Shown: positions 23,418 through 64,000, counted from the first letter of the stretch. The stretch is 64,000 nt of DNA from Candidatus Bathyarchaeota archaeon (GCA_963717465.1 OY970340.1:2432001-2496000); one strand, 5' to 3'. The notes: generated from the sequence alone by a model not told the origin. Translations and numbers: made by a program.

Positions 23418-26210
23418 TTATACCCCCTCCACTTGTACTAGGAACCAACCTACGGCGAAACCGAAGCAGTTGGCTGAAATAGTTTTATACGGTGAAATCG
23501 CTGCAACCATGCCGTTCGTATCCATCAACGGATCAGCGGCTGCTGGACCAGCTGGGCGGTAGTTAGCTCCGAATGTCTGGCGGACGACTCCTGGAGGCAC
23601 GAATTCTGTAATGTGTACTGCTGAAAGAACTGTTCCGCGGTCGTTAAAGACTTTGACGATATCACCTTCTGACAAATGTCTGTCTTCTGCGTCGATTGGA
23701 TTCATCCACATGGCCTGCGTCCAGACACCGTTTTTCGCTTTTATCATCCAGCGAGGTGTTGTCTCCCAGAGCCAGGTGGCGCTTCTGTACCTGCTATGGA
23801 ATCCGAATCGTGAGTGAGAAGTTGCTAGGAGCAGTGGGTACTTTCTTCCGCGTTTTGAAAGTCGGCTCTCTTGGTGTGTTATTCCTTCAGCGACGTAGTG
23901 TGGTACTGGCGCTCTTTCTTTGTCGTCTGGGAAGAACTTCTTGAGGTTCGTCGATTCGAATTCGAATTTCCCGGAGGGTGTTCTAAGTCCCTTTCCCTCA
24001 GGCTGGTCATGGTACCAACGGAGTCCGGGGCTTCTCTTGTATGTCTCCATGTCTGGGAACTTTACGACGTAGTATCCTTTCTTCTTGAAGTCGTCAAGGC
24101 TCATGACTTTGCTAGCTGGGCAGTCTCTCTTATAGACCAACTTCATCATTTCGTCCAAAGTCATCCCATCAGAAAACTCTCTTTCAAAGCCTAGTTTTCT
24201 TGCTAGTTCAGTGGTAATTTCAAGGTCTGATTTAGATTCCCCTATTGGTTCGATGCATTTTTCCATAAATGCGTATACGTCGTTACCCCACGCGTTTTTC
24301 CAAATCCATTTCGGAGCAGTACAAGATAATCCAGCATATGAACCGCAGATGTCGTTCTGTTCCATTGGGGTTGTTACCGGCAGAACTAAGTCGGCGAAGT
24401 GACAGTCACCTTCAAACCACGGAACTTGTATACATATGAACTCTAGTTTGGGACTCCTGAAAGCTTTCATCCATTCGTAAGTGCCGTTCCAATTTGCTAT
24501 CATTGAAGCGTAACCACTCCAGTACATGTGAATTTCAGACAGACCAGGGGTTGGATAAGTGGCTTTCCAGAACTGTTGCGTTGGATTAGTATGGAATCCC
24601 CAATCTCCTCCGCTGACTTCCGATGGTGGCCCGCGGGGTGCTTTTCCAGGTTCCACTGTTTCGCCATTGATGCCTCCATACCACGATACTGGGGGGTTCA
24701 GGATGCCGCCTGGGAACTGGGTGTAAAATACACTCTGCATTACTTTATTTTGTGGGAAGGAGTTGTATTGATACATTACCATGCGAGACCATTTTGCAGC
24801 GTCAGGATTGGTTGGTGCGGATGGAGTTGAGAACATGGTAACACCTGGCTTTCCATAACCCTGCATAACCAACAGCAGAATAGCCATTCTACAATGTTCA
24901 CTACCATATGGACCTCTACCTGCCATACAGTGCGTGGATATAGATGTAGTTTTTGAAGCCCATTCTTTTGCAAGTGCCCTTGTTATTCTGGCTTTGACAC
25001 CGGTAATCTTTTCAGCCCATTGAGGTGTCTTTGGAATTCCATCCTCGTCCCCCATGACATATTCTTTAAACTTGTCGAAGCCGATACTGTGAGTCTTGAC
25101 ATATTCCTTGTCATAAGTATCATCCTTAATCCATTGATAGGCAATCGCGGCCATTAATGCTGCATCGGTGCCTGGGTAAATTGGAATCCATTTGTCCGCT
25201 AATTTGCTTGTTAGCTCGTTACAGTCTACGTTGATCGCAACGATCTTTATTCCAAGGTCCTTAATCCAGTTCCACCAAACGTTGCTATCATTTCCTTCTC
25301 CCTCATAGGTTGTAAGTGCATCCTCTGCCCAAACTACAAGAAGCTTGGTGTTCTGCAGAACATCCTCTAGCACATCTAAGCAACCGCCAAGATATCCCGT
25401 TGGGTTAAACATGAAACCGCAGTGGTGATATCCACCCCAGAAAAAGCCTTCTGCACTGTCAGTGTTGCGCACCAGAGGTGTATGCCCGCCGAAAACTGTT
25501 AGAAATCGATCGATCTTTCTTGTATGAAGCCTTGCAGCAATCCCATGTCCACTGTCTTTCATTGCTATTGCTGAGTTCCCATATGTCGTCTTCATCCGCT
25601 TCAGTTCACTTGCTAAGATGTCAAAGGCTTCATCCCAAGTAATTCTAACAAATTCACCCTTGCCTCGGTTCTCAACACTACTCTTGCCGCCTGGTTCGAA
25701 CCCGACACGTTTCAAGGGGTACTTGACACGGTTTGATGCGTAAACAATTCTGCGGAACGCTTGGTCGAAGGTTGAAATGTGTGTCTTCTTTTCAGGAGTG
25801 TAGGTTTTGCCGCCAGCTGTGATACTCCATGGATGCGCTTCCTCTTCAGTGAAAGTCATTGGCGTAACGCGGATAATGCGCCCGGCTTTCGTGTAAACCC
25901 AAGCTGGGGCACCGCCTAGGACATCGCCTACAATAAAAGGATGCCTCTGTTCATCCTCCGCTTGAGGATTAATTGGGTTCGCAGTCACCGTTACGCCGCT
26001 TTGAGCCAAGGGTTTTGACTGCTGCAGAAGCCCGCTTCCACCCTTATCCAAGCCTGCTACCGCTGTGGCAGCTGCAGATAAAACGCGCTCCGACGCTTCT
26101 TTGCCTATTTGCTCCGGATATAAAGTCTTAGGTCCAACAAGTTCATTTGAATCTTCCGATTTCTTGTTTACACCCATATCTGGTAAATTTGCTATAACAT
26201 CCGTTGCCAT
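23418..26210 (-). CDS. DMSO-reductase-family molybdopterin enzyme, pyrogallol transhydroxylase AthL-like
   Basis: GRIIRVTPM..W.I.AGGKTYTP, RNTDSAEGFFWG (Ser ligand region), PGTDAA; no N-terminal FeS motif or TAT signal. Confidence 0.85.
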   Translation of the reverse strand: MATDVIANLPDMGVNKKSEDSNELVGPKTLYPEQIGKEASERVLSAAATAVAGLDKGGSGLLQQSKPLAQSGVTVTANPINPQAEDEQRHPFIVGDVLGGAPAWVYTKAGRIIRVTPMTFTEEEAHPWSITAGGKTYTPEKKTHISTFDQAFRRIVYASNRVKYPLKRVGFEPGGKSSVENRGKGEFVRITWDEAFDILASELKRMKTTYGNSAIAMKDSGHGIAARLHTRKIDRFLTVFGGHTPLVRNTDSAEGFFWGGYHHCGFMFNPTGYLGGCLDVLEDVLQNTKLLVVWAEDALTTYEGEGNDSNVWWNWIKDLGIKIVAINVDCNELTSKLADKWIPIYPGTDAALMAAIAYQWIKDDTYDKEYVKTHSIGFDKFKEYVMGDEDGIPKTPQWAEKITGVKARITRALAKEWASKTTSISTHCMAGRGPYGSEHCRMAILLLVMQGYGKPGVTMFSTPSAPTNPDAAKWSRMVMYQYNSFPQNKVMQSVFYTQFPGGILNPPVSWYGGINGETVEPGKAPRGPPSEVSGGDWGFHTNPTQQFWKATYPTPGLSEIHMYWSGYASMIANWNGTYEWMKAFRSPKLEFICIQVPWFEGDCHFADLVLPVTTPMEQNDICGSYAGLSCTAPKWIWKNAWGNDVYAFMEKCIEPIGESKSDLEITTELARKLGFEREFSDGMTLDEMMKLVYKRDCPASKVMSLDDFKKKGYYVVKFPDMETYKRSPGLRWYHDQPEGKGLRTPSGKFEFESTNLKKFFPDDKERAPVPHYVAEGITHQESRLSKRGRKYPLLLATSHSRFGFHSRYRSATWLWETTPRWMIKAKNGVWTQAMWMNPIDAEDRHLSEGDIVKVFNDRGTVLSAVHITEFVPPGVVRQTFGANYRPAGPAAADPLMDTNGMVAAISPYKTISANCFGFAVGWFLVQVEGV

Positions 26211-57629: not shown

Positions 57630-59204
57630 TTAGAACCTTGCTCCGGTTCCTTTCGTGTCTATTGCATAGCCGCCGATCTGTAGTACTTTGTCGTATTTGG
57701 CTACGATTGAATTCATTCTGTCAGCTACGTCTTTTGGCGGCAGTGGAGCAGGGAACTCCTTAACGATTTTCTGGGTTAGAGCGTATGCGCGGTCATCAAA
57801 GCCAAGTTTGTCTTCAATCCATCGCAAATATTGCCTCAACTCGTATAAGCCATAACCATGGCGCATTGGGAAGAAGCCTATGTCAGTCATGGTCTGTAGA
57901 GTGTGTTTTTCCTTCATGAAGTCGCCTCTTGGACCCTTAGTAAGCCATTGATCGGGCATGAAAGCTTCAGGTGAAAAATCTAAGTCTTTGAAGAACCACG
58001 AAAGCAAACGAAGCACTTCTGCTAGTTCAGTGTAGCCTTCTGGTCTGATTCCGTTTGGACCTACTGTTGTAGCCCAACAGCCACATTGGTCGGTAGCCAT
58101 TTGGAAGGCGTTGAATATGTGGTAAGTTAACATACCAGCTTGTGAGTCTGCGGCAGCTGCTGTGCCTCCCATGTTACATCCTGGCCACATGGTTGCTTTT
58201 GGTGTTGGGTAGTTGTTGTGCCAGAAGCTCACGTGTAAAGCTAATCCTTTGCTGAATTGTTCTTCAGTTCCTGCTAACATTTGTGTGTATGGGTCCATTG
58301 GCATCACTAGGTCGTAGGTCATGTCAGGGATATGGCCTTTCGCGATTCCGCCTTGTCCAAGAGCTAAAGCTACTGCCATTGATGCAGATGCAGCAACAGT
58401 CACTGTGTATGCTCCTGTTATAGTGCATGGACCTTGGAATCCAGGTATGCAAACATCAGTGTGGTCTATAAGTAGAGGTCTGCCTTTTGTCCAACCTTCC
58501 AAAGTTTGGCTCATTCTGTCACTTGTCTTTTGGCCGAAAACTAAGCCTGGTGTGTCTCCATGGTTAGTAATAAATGGTCTCTTAGCGACTTCGTCTAATC
58601 CTCCGAGCACTTCTGCAGCTAAATCAGTATAGCAGTCAATATGATCAATTGCATCAATATGCCAAATGTGTTTGGTAGTGCATTGAATAGTGCTGTTAAG
58701 ATCATGAGTATCCACTGGCAAACCAGCTTCTGCCAAGTCCATAGGCAGGAAAATTGGGCTCGTCATGTCATACTCGGGGAAGTACTCAACAATCTTTTGC
58801 TCTCTCCAGTTGTCAGCGTCAACACAGTCTCTGAATTCATATTGGTGTGTTGCTAGATTCAATTTGGAATATAGTGCCATGATGCCGAAGCCTCCGCGGA
58901 AAACTCTGCCGCTTCCGCATTCCATGAATATGTCGTTGTTTGGCGTTCTTCCTGGCAAAATTTGGTAACTTGGTATTGCATTTATGGCTTCAACTGCAAG
59001 ATTTTGAGGTATCTTTACGATTCCTTTTTTCTCGTCAGCGACGGTGCATCCTAAGTCTTTGTAGACTTTTTGAAGTTTAGGAGTAACTCCTCCCACTCCA
59101 ATTTTATCCAACAGAAACATTGCAGTATTATGGATTGTCATCAATTCTTCTTTTGTTGCTATTGAACGTGTAAATCTTCTAGGTATATTTACTCCTGTTC
59201 TCAA
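57630..59204 (-). CDS. MttB-superfamily methyltransferase (non-pyrrolysine, divergent)
   Basis: IHNTAMFLLDKIGV, GPCTITGA, DSQAG, GPRGDFMKEKHTL; no in-frame TAG. Confidence 0.85.
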   Translation of the reverse strand: MRTGVNIPRRFTRSIATKEELMTIHNTAMFLLDKIGVGGVTPKLQKVYKDLGCTVADEKKGIVKIPQNLAVEAINAIPSYQILPGRTPNNDIFMECGSGRVFRGGFGIMALYSKLNLATHQYEFRDCVDADNWREQKIVEYFPEYDMTSPIFLPMDLAEAGLPVDTHDLNSTIQCTTKHIWHIDAIDHIDCYTDLAAEVLGGLDEVAKRPFITNHGDTPGLVFGQKTSDRMSQTLEGWTKGRPLLIDHTDVCIPGFQGPCTITGAYTVTVAASASMAVALALGQGGIAKGHIPDMTYDLVMPMDPYTQMLAGTEEQFSKGLALHVSFWHNNYPTPKATMWPGCNMGGTAAAADSQAGMLTYHIFNAFQMATDQCGCWATTVGPNGIRPEGYTELAEVLRLLSWFFKDLDFSPEAFMPDQWLTKGPRGDFMKEKHTLQTMTDIGFFPMRHGYGLYELRQYLRWIEDKLGFDDRAYALTQKIVKEFPAPLPPKDVADRMNSIVAKYDKVLQIGGYAIDTKGTGARF

Positions 59205-59711: not shown

Positions 59712-61073
59712 TTAGCCCCAAGTTGGGTAATCAAAACCCATGTCTTTGAATTCTTTTGTCACTTTTTTGTACAGATCTACACATTCCTTTCTAGGTTTCA
59801 AAGTTTCTTGGTCATAGAATTCGTATAGGTTTCGCGATAGCACACTCCAGTCAAATGCCTTCAATGCAGGTGTAAACTTTGTTATGAGTTCTTTTATTAG
59901 CTTGGTTCCTTCGCTTACCTTTGTGCCAGCTGCTGCTCTTGTGAATTCACTTCCGAATTTTGCGCCCAGAGGAGGTGTACTACCGACTTCCCACATTCCT
60001 TCCATGCCTGAGATGCAAGCAGTCATACAGGCTGCTGCTGTTCCGTACCAGTCAGCTTCAGTCATTGGTATGTTTAAGCCTATTCCACTTGAAATCCATG
60101 GAGCTTTTATGTTTCGGTCTGCAGCTAACGCCATTGCCGAGTTAGCCCAGAAAACGTCTGCGCCTACATATACGTTATCAATTGTGTTGGTCATAGCCTG
60201 TGTGAAGGAACCATCTGCATAGGCCATTTGACCTAGCGAGTGAGCCATAGCTTCAAGAACTGCTTCTTCAGGAGAACTGATGTAACCGTACAGTGTTGGG
60301 CTAGTACTCTGCCATGGAACTATTTGGTGTTGCATAGCGAAGTAGGCAAGATTAACTCTGTCAAGAACAAGACGCATATCCTGAAGTATGTGAACTGGCA
60401 TCATGCAGTTTCGGTTTGTATAGTATCCAGGATCAAAAGCGGAGATTAGAGCGATCATGCTTGTTGCAGTCATAGGTATACCCAGTAACATGCCAGGTCT
60501 TCCAGCGGCGCGTGCACCAGCAGTCAACAGTTCGCATTCAGTGTGAACCATAAGTGACTCAGTAGGTGTGCCACCGGTAGGTTTCTGACCAAAAGAGGCT
60601 TCAATTATATTAGGAATCATGCCGTCAGTTGTAGGTTCCCTGGCAACAAGATAAACAGCGTCTCGCCATTGTGATAAGTCGCTTCCCATCCATCCAGCAG
60701 CATTCAAGCAGTATGGATGTTGTTTATCCTCTGGACCTCTAGGACGCATCCTCAGTATGTCCCTGCCTGTTCCCCACTCAACCTCCTGCTTTCGTGTCTT
60801 CACAACTTCTCTGAGCTCTGTTTCAGTGAATTTCACCAAGTGCTTGGTATCCTTGCAGTACAATCCGCATTGGACAAGCAATTGTATGCTGGCTTCGTAG
60901 ATAGCATCAGCCATTTGTGCATCTGTCAAAATTGGTTCGCCATCCCATTTAATCTTGTAATCTTGGACTAACTGCTTTACTTTCTCGGGAAAAAAGGTAT
61001 TTTCAAATTCGTCTTCCTTCATTATTGGACCAGTTCTGGTTCTTTCCAAAACTTCCCACAATAAATGACCCAT
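59712..61073 (-). CDS. MtmB-family methyltransferase (non-pyrrolysine)
   Basis: EVLERTRTGP..DEFE, MADAIYEA..GLYCKDT, AGRPGMLLGIP; no in-frame TAG. Confidence 0.88.
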   Translation of the reverse strand: MGHLLWEVLERTRTGPIMKEDEFENTFFPEKVKQLVQDYKIKWDGEPILTDAQMADAIYEASIQLLVQCGLYCKDTKHLVKFTETELREVVKTRKQEVEWGTGRDILRMRPRGPEDKQHPYCLNAAGWMGSDLSQWRDAVYLVAREPTTDGMIPNIIEASFGQKPTGGTPTESLMVHTECELLTAGARAAGRPGMLLGIPMTATSMIALISAFDPGYYTNRNCMMPVHILQDMRLVLDRVNLAYFAMQHQIVPWQSTSPTLYGYISSPEEAVLEAMAHSLGQMAYADGSFTQAMTNTIDNVYVGADVFWANSAMALAADRNIKAPWISSGIGLNIPMTEADWYGTAAACMTACISGMEGMWEVGSTPPLGAKFGSEFTRAAAGTKVSEGTKLIKELITKFTPALKAFDWSVLSRNLYEFYDQETLKPRKECVDLYKKVTKEFKDMGFDYPTWG

Positions 61074-61366: not shown

Positions 61367-61762
61367 TTAGTATTCAACACCGGGTAGTGTTTTTGAAACT
61401 TCGGATAAACGACCCAACGATTTCTGGTGCTTCATTGCCTTCATCATGTTGAGCTTTAGTTTAGCTTTCTGCGCGTTAATTTCGCCTTTGGCAATACCCG
61501 CATGCATAGCATAAGTAGCGGTGGTACCAAATTCTGTTTGTTTGGAACCAAGATCTGCGGCTTTGGCCTCGCTAGCGGTAACTTTTCCGTTCTCAATAGT
61601 TAGGAGAAAAGCTTTCGGCTGCCCATCTGGACCTAGCACATCAGAGAATACATACATGAAATTTGTAGAAAGCGCTGCTTTCTGAAAAGCTTCATCTTTG
61701 TTCATGGCGTCAGCGTACATCTTATAATATTCTATTGTTCCAAATTTTACCAACATATTCAC
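61367..61762 (-). CDS. SCP2 sterol/lipid-binding domain protein
   Basis: KFGT.EY..YADAMNKD..., TATYAMHAGIAKGEINA..KLKLNMMKAMK. Confidence 0.75.
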   Translation of the reverse strand: MNMLVKFGTIEYYKMYADAMNKDEAFQKAALSTNFMYVFSDVLGPDGQPKAFLLTIENGKVTASEAKAADLGSKQTEFGTTATYAMHAGIAKGEINAQKAKLKLNMMKAMKHQKSLGRLSEVSKTLPGVEY

Positions 61763-62127
61763 CTCCCATAAAACCTTTAAGCAAGAATCCGTTTTTCATT
61801 TTGTTCAACCTGAACGCTTGTTCGTCTTCGATATGAGGTTCCACTTAATATTTAAATTGAATTATAGCTTATTCCAATTTTTTGCAACAAAATAGGCTTT
61901 TATAATAAATATTTGCTACATTGCTGTAGAAATAATAATCATTTTGGCACAAATGTGCAATACTCCAATCTCTTCGAATCAAAGAACAAGATGAGCTTCG
62001 ATAAAACACAAAAAAAATTGTTAAGACATCTGTTTTGCTATGATATTAAAAAATTATCACTTTCGTGTAATTTAATACGCACAACGATAAATAAAACTAA
62101 AAAAAGAGGAAAGTTTATTGCAAGTTT

Positions 62128-64000
62128 TTATGGTCCGTACGATCCGATGTTTGCTGAGTACACTTTAGCAAGCTGAGATTTGAAATTCCAGGCTCCAAGT
62201 TCAGCGCTAAGATGCTCTGGGCTATCTGGAATTGTGACATTGATATTCCAGTCTGTCCAGCCATAGAGCGTTGGCTCCTCAGCTGGCAATTCAGGACGCC
62301 ACCAACCATGCTCAGGAGACACAATCTTTGGATTAACACCAAAATCATACCGCACCGTCTGCATACACCTACCAAGCGGCGTCTCAATGTAGATCCATTC
62401 ACCATCGCCAATGCCCATGTTACGTGCCGTCAAAGGATGCATTTTTACGCGAGGGACTGGACGCAAATGCCGCATCAAGCTGAGATGTCGATGCTCGCCA
62501 TGCTGAGCCTCTTGGAACCGTGCACCGCTACACAGAATCATAGGATAATCCTTAGCGATGTCAGGCGCACTAATCGGAGTCCAAGGATTCTCGACATAAT
62601 ACGGTATCGGGTCATACTCCAACTGCTCCAGTATGGTGGAGTAAAGCGCAACTTTACCCTCAGGAGTTCCAAAGCCTCTGATCTGTCCAGTCTCAGGATC
62701 AAGCTCCTCATACTTCTTAAATCTAGGTTCATACGGCGGAACACCCTTCCACTCCTTTATAACTTGTTTATGCGTCCAGCCAACAGGCTCATAGAACCAG
62801 TCCGCCATCTCCTCTAAAGTTTTCCAAGGCATGGCTGCGTAAGTTTTGTTCTCGCCAACAACTGCAACTGCCAGATCGCGGAATATTATGCTGTCATCTT
62901 TCAGATCCCACAATCCAGGAATTTTCTGAGGCAGCGCCCGATCACCTGCAATCTCAAACTCAACTGATCCCTGAGTTGAAACAGTCCCATAACCAGACGG
63001 CCTCTCAAACTGACTCGTACCAGGCAACACATAATCTGCAAGCATAGCCTCAGGAGTCATCGAAGCACACTCAATGTACACAAACAACTCAAGCTTCTTT
63101 AGAGCCTCATAAACCTTCTTTATGTTCGCATAACACCTCATTGGACCACATTCACCAGCAAACATCGCTTTAACTGGATAGGGCTTGCCAGTCAAAATCG
63201 TATCTATTGTACTTGGGAAATGTGCACCTACTGGTCCAGCATACCCAGCACCCTTCCAGTATCCTTGAGCCGTCTCTGACGCTTGAATAAGACCACCACC
63301 ACTAAAGCCTCCCATCCTGTATGTCTCGCCGCCTATCTGTTTTCCCCAATCGCTGTTAGTCCCGCTAATTGCTGTTTGGAACGCCTCACAAGCAGTGTGG
63401 AATTTGGGTCTTGCATGTAGGTATTCGCCGCCTTCAATGTCGACGTTGCCAGTTAACGCCGGTAGCATATATTTGGATCGAACGTTGTTCATGGAGTTTC
63501 TACCACCTGATTCAATGGCGTAGCCATATGGGAAAGAACATGGACTATTTTCAACTATGAAGTGAGCAGCTTCCCTAATCTTCTCAGCTGGAATCCAAGT
63601 AATTTCCGCAACCTTCTCAGGAGTGTACTGCTTAACACGTTCTTTTAGCTTGTCAAAGCCAAAGCACCATTTCTCCACAAAGTCATGATTATACAAATCC
63701 TCCTCGATGAGAACATTCAGCATAGCCAGCAAAAATGCAGTATCAGTGCCAGGTCTAATGGCCAACCATTTTTCAGAAATCCGAGCGGTCTCAGTAAAAC
63801 GTGGATCTATGCAGAGCATTTTCGCGCCTCCCTCCGTTGCGGCAACGAAACCTGGCCACGCATATGTCCAAGACTCCATAGCATTATTACCAATATTAAA
63901 TATACCCTTAGTCTTACCTGGAATCATCATTGCGTATGTTAATCCCACGCCATAGCCTAATCCTAAGGCTGAGTACGTGGGTCCGGCTCATTGCTGAGCT
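62128..64000 (-). CDS. Molybdopterin oxidoreductase (acetylene hydratase-like), 5' end outside window, in-frame TGA at 63988-63990
   Basis: IDPRFTETA, RPGTDTA, ADYVLP, EHGWWRPE..NIN motifs; upstream frame reads AQQ-TGA-AGPTYSALGLGYG. Confidence 0.88.
63944..63981 (-). promoter_or_regulatory. Candidate SECIS hairpin just 3' of the UGA
   Basis: mRNA: UGA-GCCGGA-CCCACG-UACUC-AGCCU-UAGGAUU-AGGCU-AUGG-CGUGGG. Confidence 0.55.

Follow-up and report, generated by a model that had tools for sequence, protein, structure and literature searches.

A hairpin six nucleotides behind an in-frame UGA as a candidate local selenocysteine signal in a Bathyarchaeon with archaeal-type selenocysteine machinery

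In archaea, the selenocysteine insertion sequence (SECIS) elements that mark UGA as a selenocysteine (Sec) codon lie in untranslated regions (UTRs), and placement inside the open reading frame (ORF) is given as a bacterial trait only, in the available sections of three accounts (PMC4989117, 2016; PMC11227280, 2024; PMC11881835, 2025); a first-pass annotation of the DNA described here had given UTR placement as the rule for most characterized archaeal Sec users. According to these sections, the methanogen element has a kink-turn-like GAA/A loop and occupies the 3' UTR, once the 5' UTR; the Lokiarchaeota element lies downstream of the coding sequence, and one such UTR element can serve several UGAs. 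Shifting a methanogen SECIS near the UGA may help insertion (PMC11881835), and bacterial SECIS (bSECIS) elements are described in general terms in PMC4989117. A hairpin placed just after the Sec codon is known from bacteria and is not described for archaea in these parts of the literature. Sec use with a fused PSTK-aSelB protein in Bathyarchaeota has already been published (Mukai et al., Front Genet 2022, PMC8762117) and is not new. The locus analyzed here lies at the end of a 64,000-nucleotide stretch of DNA (the window) from Candidatus Bathyarchaeota archaeon (GCA_963717465.1 OY970340.1:2432001-2496000), which corresponds to G000:C1:2432001-2496000 in the source genome G000, a single contig of 3,053,889 bp; it consists of the 3' part of a gene for an acetylene-hydratase-like molybdenum/tungsten (Mo/W) enzyme, in which an in-frame UGA at the metal-ligand position is followed, six nucleotides further on and still within the coding sequence, by a hairpin that we propose as a local recoding signal.

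The selenoprotein gene has 770 codons plus the stop; 1,873 of its 2,313 nt lie within the window (62128-64000, minus strand), and its ATG is found 440 nt past the window end, at G000:C1:2496440. Read on the minus strand from position 63999, the DNA around the codon is GCT CAG CAA TGA GCC GGA CCC ACG, and the translation runs A-Q-Q-TGA-A-G-P-T-Y-S-A-L-G-L-G-Y-G; the TGA occupies positions 63990-63988, in frame with the ORF at 62128-63948, where the first-pass annotation, with just 10 nt 5' of the UGA in view, had placed it. The whole genome supplied the remainder of the gene: between the ATG and the UGA lie 150 open codons, which contain the expected Fe-S motif (Cys20, Cys23, Cys28, and Cys56 in the domain Molybdop_Fe4S4), and 619 open codons follow the UGA. 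The UGA (63988-63990, minus strand) is codon 151, and it does fall on the Mo/W ligand, as had been claimed: it aligns with the ligand Cys of acetylene hydratase (2e7z), of polysulfide/thiosulfate reductase (2vpw), and of FdhA (9vap), and this column holds Cys in 110 of 110 full-length homologues among the best 120 database matches. The remaining 10 matches, which are the closest (442-607 residues, identity 65-91%), were called as genes starting 3' of the UGA; because gene callers cut at UGA, truncating 10 of 10 close entries, a Sec-ligated Mo/W enzyme family of peat and sediment archaea is invisible in annotations.

With the UGA paired with the Cys of homologues and with coding sequence on both sides, codon 151 almost certainly belongs to a genuine selenoprotein gene that also carries its codon in 10 further genomic copies. 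Searching the genome with tblastn recovered these copies, all with their TGA at the ligand column; identity to the window copy is 72-78% for nine of them and 43% for one. It is scarcely credible that the TGA is not decoded and that translation ends at codon 151, as in a pseudogene, a split gene or an assembly error; assembly frameshifts do occur in three paralogues, and database gene calls do make the downstream part a separate protein of 596-607 residues, but the 11 copies have their TGA at the exact ligand column and no other stop there, amino-acid conservation of 72-78% indicates coding in both halves, a protein begun after the UGA would be without its Fe-S domain and metal ligand, and the genome contains the full Sec machinery. 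The same TGA is also present in a contig from a public peat-metagenome run (X1, record 2, 157 nt, depth 3.8) that spans both TGA and hairpin; 156 of its 157 positions are identical, and the sole mismatch lies upstream of the codon, outside TGA and hairpin. This contig adds little weight, since the run possibly derives from the same sample as the genome assembly. Of the public runs listed as containing parts of the stretch, none is of RNA; three DNA runs contain small fractions of it (0.05-0.13). Elsewhere in the genome TGA is an ordinary stop, ending 350 of 1381 frames of at least 250 codons, and genome-wide reassignment of TGA is therefore excluded.

The hairpin comprises 38 nt (63944-63981, minus strand) and is separated from the UGA by the 6-nt spacer GCCGGA (63982-63987), so that its main stem starts at +6. 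It folds exactly as the first-pass annotation had drawn it, with an outer stem of 7 bp, CCCACG(U)/(G)CGUGGG (5' arm 63975-63981, 3' arm 63944-63950), an inner stem of 5 bp, AGCCU/AGGCU (5' arm 63966-63970, 3' arm 63954-63958), and an apical loop of 7 nt, UAGGAUU (63959-63965); a stem-loop within the ORF and directly 3' of the UGA is a feature of the bSECIS. The minimum free energy (MFE) is -19.4 kcal/mol (z = -2.86 for the 53 nt from the UGA), and none of 200 dinucleotide shuffles was as stable. By comparison, the 54 nt downstream of ordinary TGA stops (n = 349) fold with -6.4 +/- 3.4 kcal/mol; 1.4% of them reach -16 and 0.3% reach -19 kcal/mol. All 11 TGA paralogues have a hairpin of -16 to -22 kcal/mol after the TGA, with the main stem starting at +6 in 10 of them and at +7 in copy p1822504; three of the folds have a few extra flanking pairs before it. 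The Cys-type homologues (n = 29) average -10.6 kcal/mol with a z of -0.28 and share no common stem, and a twelfth homologue in the same genome, 33% identical and with Cys in the ligand column, has no hairpin (-7.3 kcal/mol). The apical loops often begin with or contain GGA (UAGGAUU in the window copy, GGGA, GGAGUUA, GGAA, GGA), which may be a recognition motif or a by-product of Gly codons; loops of this type follow the UGAs at G000:C1 positions 1822504, 2799134, 2823439, and 2823619, and are not seen in copy p1211628 or at the first site of the HdrA-MvhD gene (AAGUAUA).

This HdrA-MvhD fusion gene is unrelated to the enzyme family and gives the same contrast between TGA and Cys forms, of the kind that the first-pass annotation had recommended looking for. 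In the source genome it contains in-frame UGAs at two sites, and a hairpin with its main stem at +6 follows each of them. Thirty loci of the same genus (L195-L224) were compared, TGA-type against Cys-type. At site 1, a 16-bp hairpin is present in 9 of 9 TGA-type sequences (mean -26.5 kcal/mol, z -6.0) and absent from 22 of 22 sequences with a Cys codon, TGY (mean -7.8, z +0.4); at site 2, a GCCGGC/GCCGGC hairpin is likewise present in 9 of 9 TGA-type sequences (mean -23.4) and absent from 21 of 21 with TGY (mean -11.9). The main stem lies at +6 at both sites in all nine TGA-type loci, preceded in five of the nine site-2 folds by three extra flanking pairs. Compared with the Cys-type sequence, the arms of the hairpins carry differences at synonymous as well as conservative non-synonymous sites, and the RNA appears to have shaped the peptide in this gene. 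The two-UGA form occurs at 9 of the 30 loci, including that of G000, with further partial matches in the genomes G383 and G187, and other genomes of the genus have a Cys form; G000 has both, with its Cys copy at 1502431-1504851.

Selection on the hairpin as RNA was assessed among the seven intact paralogues in windows of 17 codons, by scoring codon identity wherever all copies share one amino acid that has more than one codon. The hairpin windows are the top eight of 600, with an identity of 0.79-0.83 compared to 0.57 gene-wide, and the outer-stem codons for P, T, G, V, and G are invariant in the seven copies. In an alignment of 11 sequences (A1), pairing is kept in 90.2% of cells; shuffles keep 85.1%, with 0 of 500 reaching the observed value, and slid controls 23-46%. 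In the inner stem, four of five pairs have changed on both sides, for example in a synonymous Leu pair where UUA>CUA is accompanied by UUA>UUG, and among three diverged copies with different peptides, p2799134 and p1822504 still pair and fold at the same place, and pairing in the third, p1211628, is poorer. The covariation was determined from paralogues within the genome; the close relatives P0002, P0003, P0004, P0008, P0009, and P0010 (65-91% identity) were compared as proteins alone. A genuine Sec codon with a hairpin incidental to recoding is very improbable, whether that hairpin arose as a by-product of the G-P-T...Y-G-V-G peptide, of gene conversion, or of a role such as mRNA stability. 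Such an origin would be in keeping with the similar peptide in 10 of the 11 copies, among which the outer stem is invariant, and with a codon identity at conserved residues that already amounts to 0.57 across the gene; against it stand the two diverged copies that encode different peptides yet keep the pairing, the compensatory synonymous changes of Leu codons, the lack of a hairpin in the Cys-type homologues of the enzyme, and the +6 hairpins at both HdrA-MvhD UGAs that are absent in all 22 and 21 Cys-type sequences. Synonymous conservation, covariation, Cys-type controls, and the HdrA-MvhD contrast bear out the link between hairpin and UGA that the first-pass annotation had drawn.

The genome encodes the Sec system for which that annotation had called. 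Two tRNA-Sec genes with the anticodon TCA were identified by ARAGORN and Rfam (71.8 and 61.8 bits, cut-off 47); SepSecS (488.9 bits) adjoins the first of them, SelD (240 bits) is present and contains one in-frame TGA, and matches to PSTK and SelB fall within one ORF of 732 residues, a PSTK-aSelB fusion. tRNA-Sec, synthesis enzymes, SelD and elongation factor thus occur together in one genome, SelD itself having a TGA without a hairpin. A second PSTK-SelB ORF of 730 residues (L070, G000:C1:2827783-2829725) is located beside the second tRNA-Sec; its frame is 54% identical to the first copy and has altered GTPase motifs (GHCKHGKT, SKID). The suggestion of possibly bacterial-type machinery is not supported: SelA was not found (best match 20.5 bits against a cut-off of 267.9), SepSecS and PSTK are present, and the SelB module is not of the bacterial type, since it aligns with the aSelB of Methanococcus maripaludis (4ac9, residues 19-478 of 482) and includes the aSelB_III domain, and neither SelB frame has a Pfam match to the winged-helix domains of bacterial SelB. 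The Sec machinery is archaeal, not bacterial. The attribution to a probable Bathyarchaeon is supported; of 369 relatives of the PSTK-aSelB protein, most of those with a name bear the label Bathyarchaeota or Bathyarchaeia, and the nearest named ones do so too. Among the genes beside SelD and PSTK-aSelB, which encode ATP-binding cassette (ABC)/CbiQ transport components and a protein resembling the triosephosphate isomerase (TIM) barrel of xylose isomerase, there is no RNA-binding candidate.

The flanks of these genes were searched for another signal. A run of seven T (62099-62105, minus strand), 23-29 nt after the TAA stop of the selenoprotein gene, is a candidate archaeal oligo-T terminator and would probably leave a very short 3' UTR of approximately 30 nt; in eight of nine paralogues a run of at least five T starts 6-31 nt after the stop, and the ninth has T4 at +25. 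Apart from these T runs, the 3' flanks of the nine copies have nothing in common, and mutual matches among the 5' flanks are confined to the start of the coding region. The GAA/A motif of the methanogen SECIS, sought with a simple descriptor in the flanks of 12 Sec genes, gave one AU-rich chance match, and an Rfam search returned chance matches only, with nothing below E = 2; a methanogen-type element in a UTR, with an internal loop of GAA and opposite A, was thus not found.

The hairpin is probably a local recoding signal for UGA-Sec, judging from its stability, its conservation as RNA and its absence from Cys-type sequences. In this scheme the UGA would be decoded by the archaeal-type tRNA-Sec together with PSTK fused to aSelB, SepSecS, and SelD, and the 38-nt hairpin, six nucleotides past the codon and within the frame, would mark this UGA as Sec rather than stop. 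While the ribosome has the UGA in its A site, the hairpin would be positioned at the mRNA entrance and might there recruit the complex of PSTK-aSelB and Sec-tRNA, or might delay termination until that complex binds; each Sec codon would have its own hairpin, as in bacteria.

The main rival, though rather unlikely, is that the hairpin serves a true Sec codon only as an accessory stimulator that slows termination, comparable to the Sec redefinition element (SRE) of SELENON; specificity would then come from some other signal or factor, such as a distal SECIS, a trans-acting RNA, or the second pair of tRNA-Sec and PSTK-SelB. The SELENON SRE has a spacing of 6 nt, and the position of the hairpin fits an SRE; no distal element accompanying the hairpin in an SRE-type arrangement was found in the flanks. 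According to the part of PMC8704476 available, SREs are structures that closely follow UGA-Sec codons, and the lineage that has them uses archaeal-like machinery; an accessory role would also accommodate a SelD UGA without hairpin and an aSelB in which no hairpin-binding domain is found. It accounts less well for a strong hairpin at 15 of 16 candidate Sec UGAs (an incomplete list, whose making was partly guided by hairpin strength), given that SREs occur in few eukaryotic genes, or for genes with two UGAs that have one hairpin per UGA; the flanks, moreover, offer no common motif or structure, and oligo-T runs begin 6-31 nt after the stop in eight of nine copies. Screening by coding potential for the full selenoproteome left 676 and then 497 candidates, with too much noise to be of use. 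A scan of metagenome contigs with both arms of the outer stem yielded at least 120 loci; among those listed, two had TGA at -6, and none of these encoded a relative.

Several observations weigh against a local recoding signal and temper our preference for it. The eleven paralogues are related and their counts are not independent; the covariation signal comes from about three to four independent changes in the stem; pairing is poorer in copy p1211628 than in the others; and for the outer stem, invariant in 10 of the 11 copies, the synonymous-site test is the single line of evidence, while gene conversion among the paralogues could be the source of this invariance. No hairpin-binding protein and no hairpin-binding domain of aSelB was found, and methanogen aSelB is not known to bind SECIS RNA. 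The TGA of SelD (G000:C1:951702; L069:1702) is not followed by a distinctive hairpin (-9.1 kcal/mol, at the 20th percentile for ordinary stops), and within 90 nt after it there is no hairpin stronger than in four Cys-type relatives; it falls on the catalytic Sec/Cys position, where four Sec-using relatives of the genus have TGC. Either an assembly error or decoding as Sec without the aid of a hairpin could account for it. Finally, one UGA of a URO-D-like gene (2823619) is followed by a strong hairpin with a GGA triloop at +27, not +6.

If the hairpin is a local recoding signal, its consequences extend beyond this gene. Because the signal would be local and could be built by few synonymous or conservative changes, Cys codons could be turned into Sec codons one gene at a time, which would account for the split between Sec and Cys forms of HdrA-MvhD within one genus, and also the rise of a Sec-ligated acetylene-hydratase-like family and its expansion to 11 copies in one genome. 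Archaeal-type machinery that reads a codon-adjacent hairpin would break the division between UTR-based SECIS in archaea and eukaryotes and in-frame SECIS in bacteria, and would reopen the questions of what recognizes the signal in archaea, in which no SECIS-binding protein is known, and which arrangement is ancestral. A 38-nt local signal that works with factors of the archaeal/eukaryal type would also be useful for engineered selenoprotein expression. More broadly, Bathyarchaeia with the PSTK-aSelB fusion may use a third class of archaeal Sec signal, an in-gene hairpin at a distance of 6 nt from each UGA that operates with neither bacterial SelB winged-helix domains nor a UTR SECIS; we regard the chances for and against this generalization as evenly balanced.

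The gene product is best explained as a cytoplasmic enzyme of the Mo/W-bis(pyranopterin guanine dinucleotide) type, with one [4Fe-4S] cluster and with Sec151 replacing Cys as metal ligand. Three Pfam domains (Molybdop_Fe4S4, residues 19-68; Molybdopterin, 74-524; Molydop_binding, 645-741) and the ligand residue in its conserved column place it in the dimethyl sulfoxide (DMSO) reductase, or MopB, superfamily; matches to NCBIfam models, including PhsA and Fdh-alpha, are all below threshold. The best solved relative is acetylene hydratase (2e7z_A, E = 8.9e-108, residues 18-761). Ser24, which follows the second Fe-S Cys, aligns with the catalytic Asp of acetylene hydratase, Asp13, and Asp is found there in 0 of the 120 homologues. 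As it combines Ser24 in place of Asp with Sec151 in place of the Cys ligand, the protein is not an acetylene hydratase proper, and its sequence assigns it to an acetylene-hydratase-like branch. A more distant Mo/W-oxidoreductase homologue occurs in the window at about 24969-25745 (minus strand; G000:C1:2456969-2457745); it is 26% identical over residues 66-292 and does not align at the ligand column.

The 11 Sec-type copies of this enzyme include seven intact ones, counting that of the window, and three interrupted by frameshifts (G000:C1 132694, 617083, and 2799134); there are in addition two short fragments (616127 and 1076551), and the frameshifted copies and fragments are due to indel errors of long reads or else represent genes in decay. 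Among 119 other genomes of the genus, none yielded a close homologue (E <= 1e-50); sampling 400 further genomes of the class gave a best match of 41% identity, without a stop, and a search of genome contigs for related loci gave just two bacterial loci of 31% identity. The only match of the class with a TGA, a Cys-type homologue in another Bathyarchaeia genome (L194, G181:C50), was rejected as a Sec form; its in-frame TGA aligns with a conserved Trp, the ligand Cys is kept, and the TGA is probably an error or the mark of a pseudogene. Downstream of the selenoprotein gene, the window contains homologues of MtmB-family (59712-61073, minus strand, E = 1.6e-45) and MttB-family (57630-59204, minus strand, E = 1.6e-15) methyltransferases, which appear to be forms without pyrrolysine because both ORFs are uninterrupted; a 131-residue ORF without Pfam match (61367-61762, minus strand) separates the MtmB-like gene from the selenoprotein gene.

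With the acetylene hydratase of Pelobacter acetylenicus (2e7z) the protein shares the full-length fold, the four Fe-S Cys residues and the ligand column; the ligand is Sec here and Cys there, and Ser takes the place of the catalytic Asp. The sections available of a superfamily review give Cys as the ligand of the acetylene-hydratase family, and give Sec as an established Mo/W ligand in FdhF, FdhA, and FwdB (PMC10100899). The Sec-containing formate dehydrogenases (FdhF, 1aa6; FdhA) are among the closest known systems, Sec being the Mo/W ligand there too. The Sec machinery is the same as that published for Bathyarchaeota, in a paper whose main text does not contain the word SECIS and in whose available parts we found no treatment of a recoding signal or of an acetylene-hydratase-like selenoprotein family (PMC8762117); nor was a SECIS description for Bathyarchaeota or Bathyarchaeia found in the accessible portions of that paper or of PMC9499178, PMC5424206, PMC9723677, and PMC10100899, in a search that covered main texts outside most subscription journals.

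As for the recoding signals, the hairpin has in common with the SELENON SRE that it lies in the ORF a few nucleotides after a UGA-Sec codon, in a system of archaeal/eukaryal type; the SRE, as described in the available part of PMC8704476, works with a 3'-UTR SECIS and in few genes, whereas the hairpin follows nearly all Sec codons considered here, with no distal SECIS found. The methanogen and Lokiarchaeota systems share the PSTK, SepSecS, and aSelB machinery, and differ in that the Bathyarchaeon has an adjacent hairpin for each UGA and no GAA/A motif or common flank structure. With the bSECIS, of which that of Escherichia coli fdhF is the prototype, the hairpin shares G residues at or close to where the apical loop begins, and the rule of one hairpin per Sec codon. 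The bacterial element is read by the C-terminal winged-helix domains of SelB, whereas here neither bacterial SelB nor SelA is present; the hairpin is not readable by winged-helix domains of the bacterial SelB type, because the genome has none of these. By analogy, then, the hairpin would work like a bSECIS, yet it is not a member of the bacterial SECIS family.

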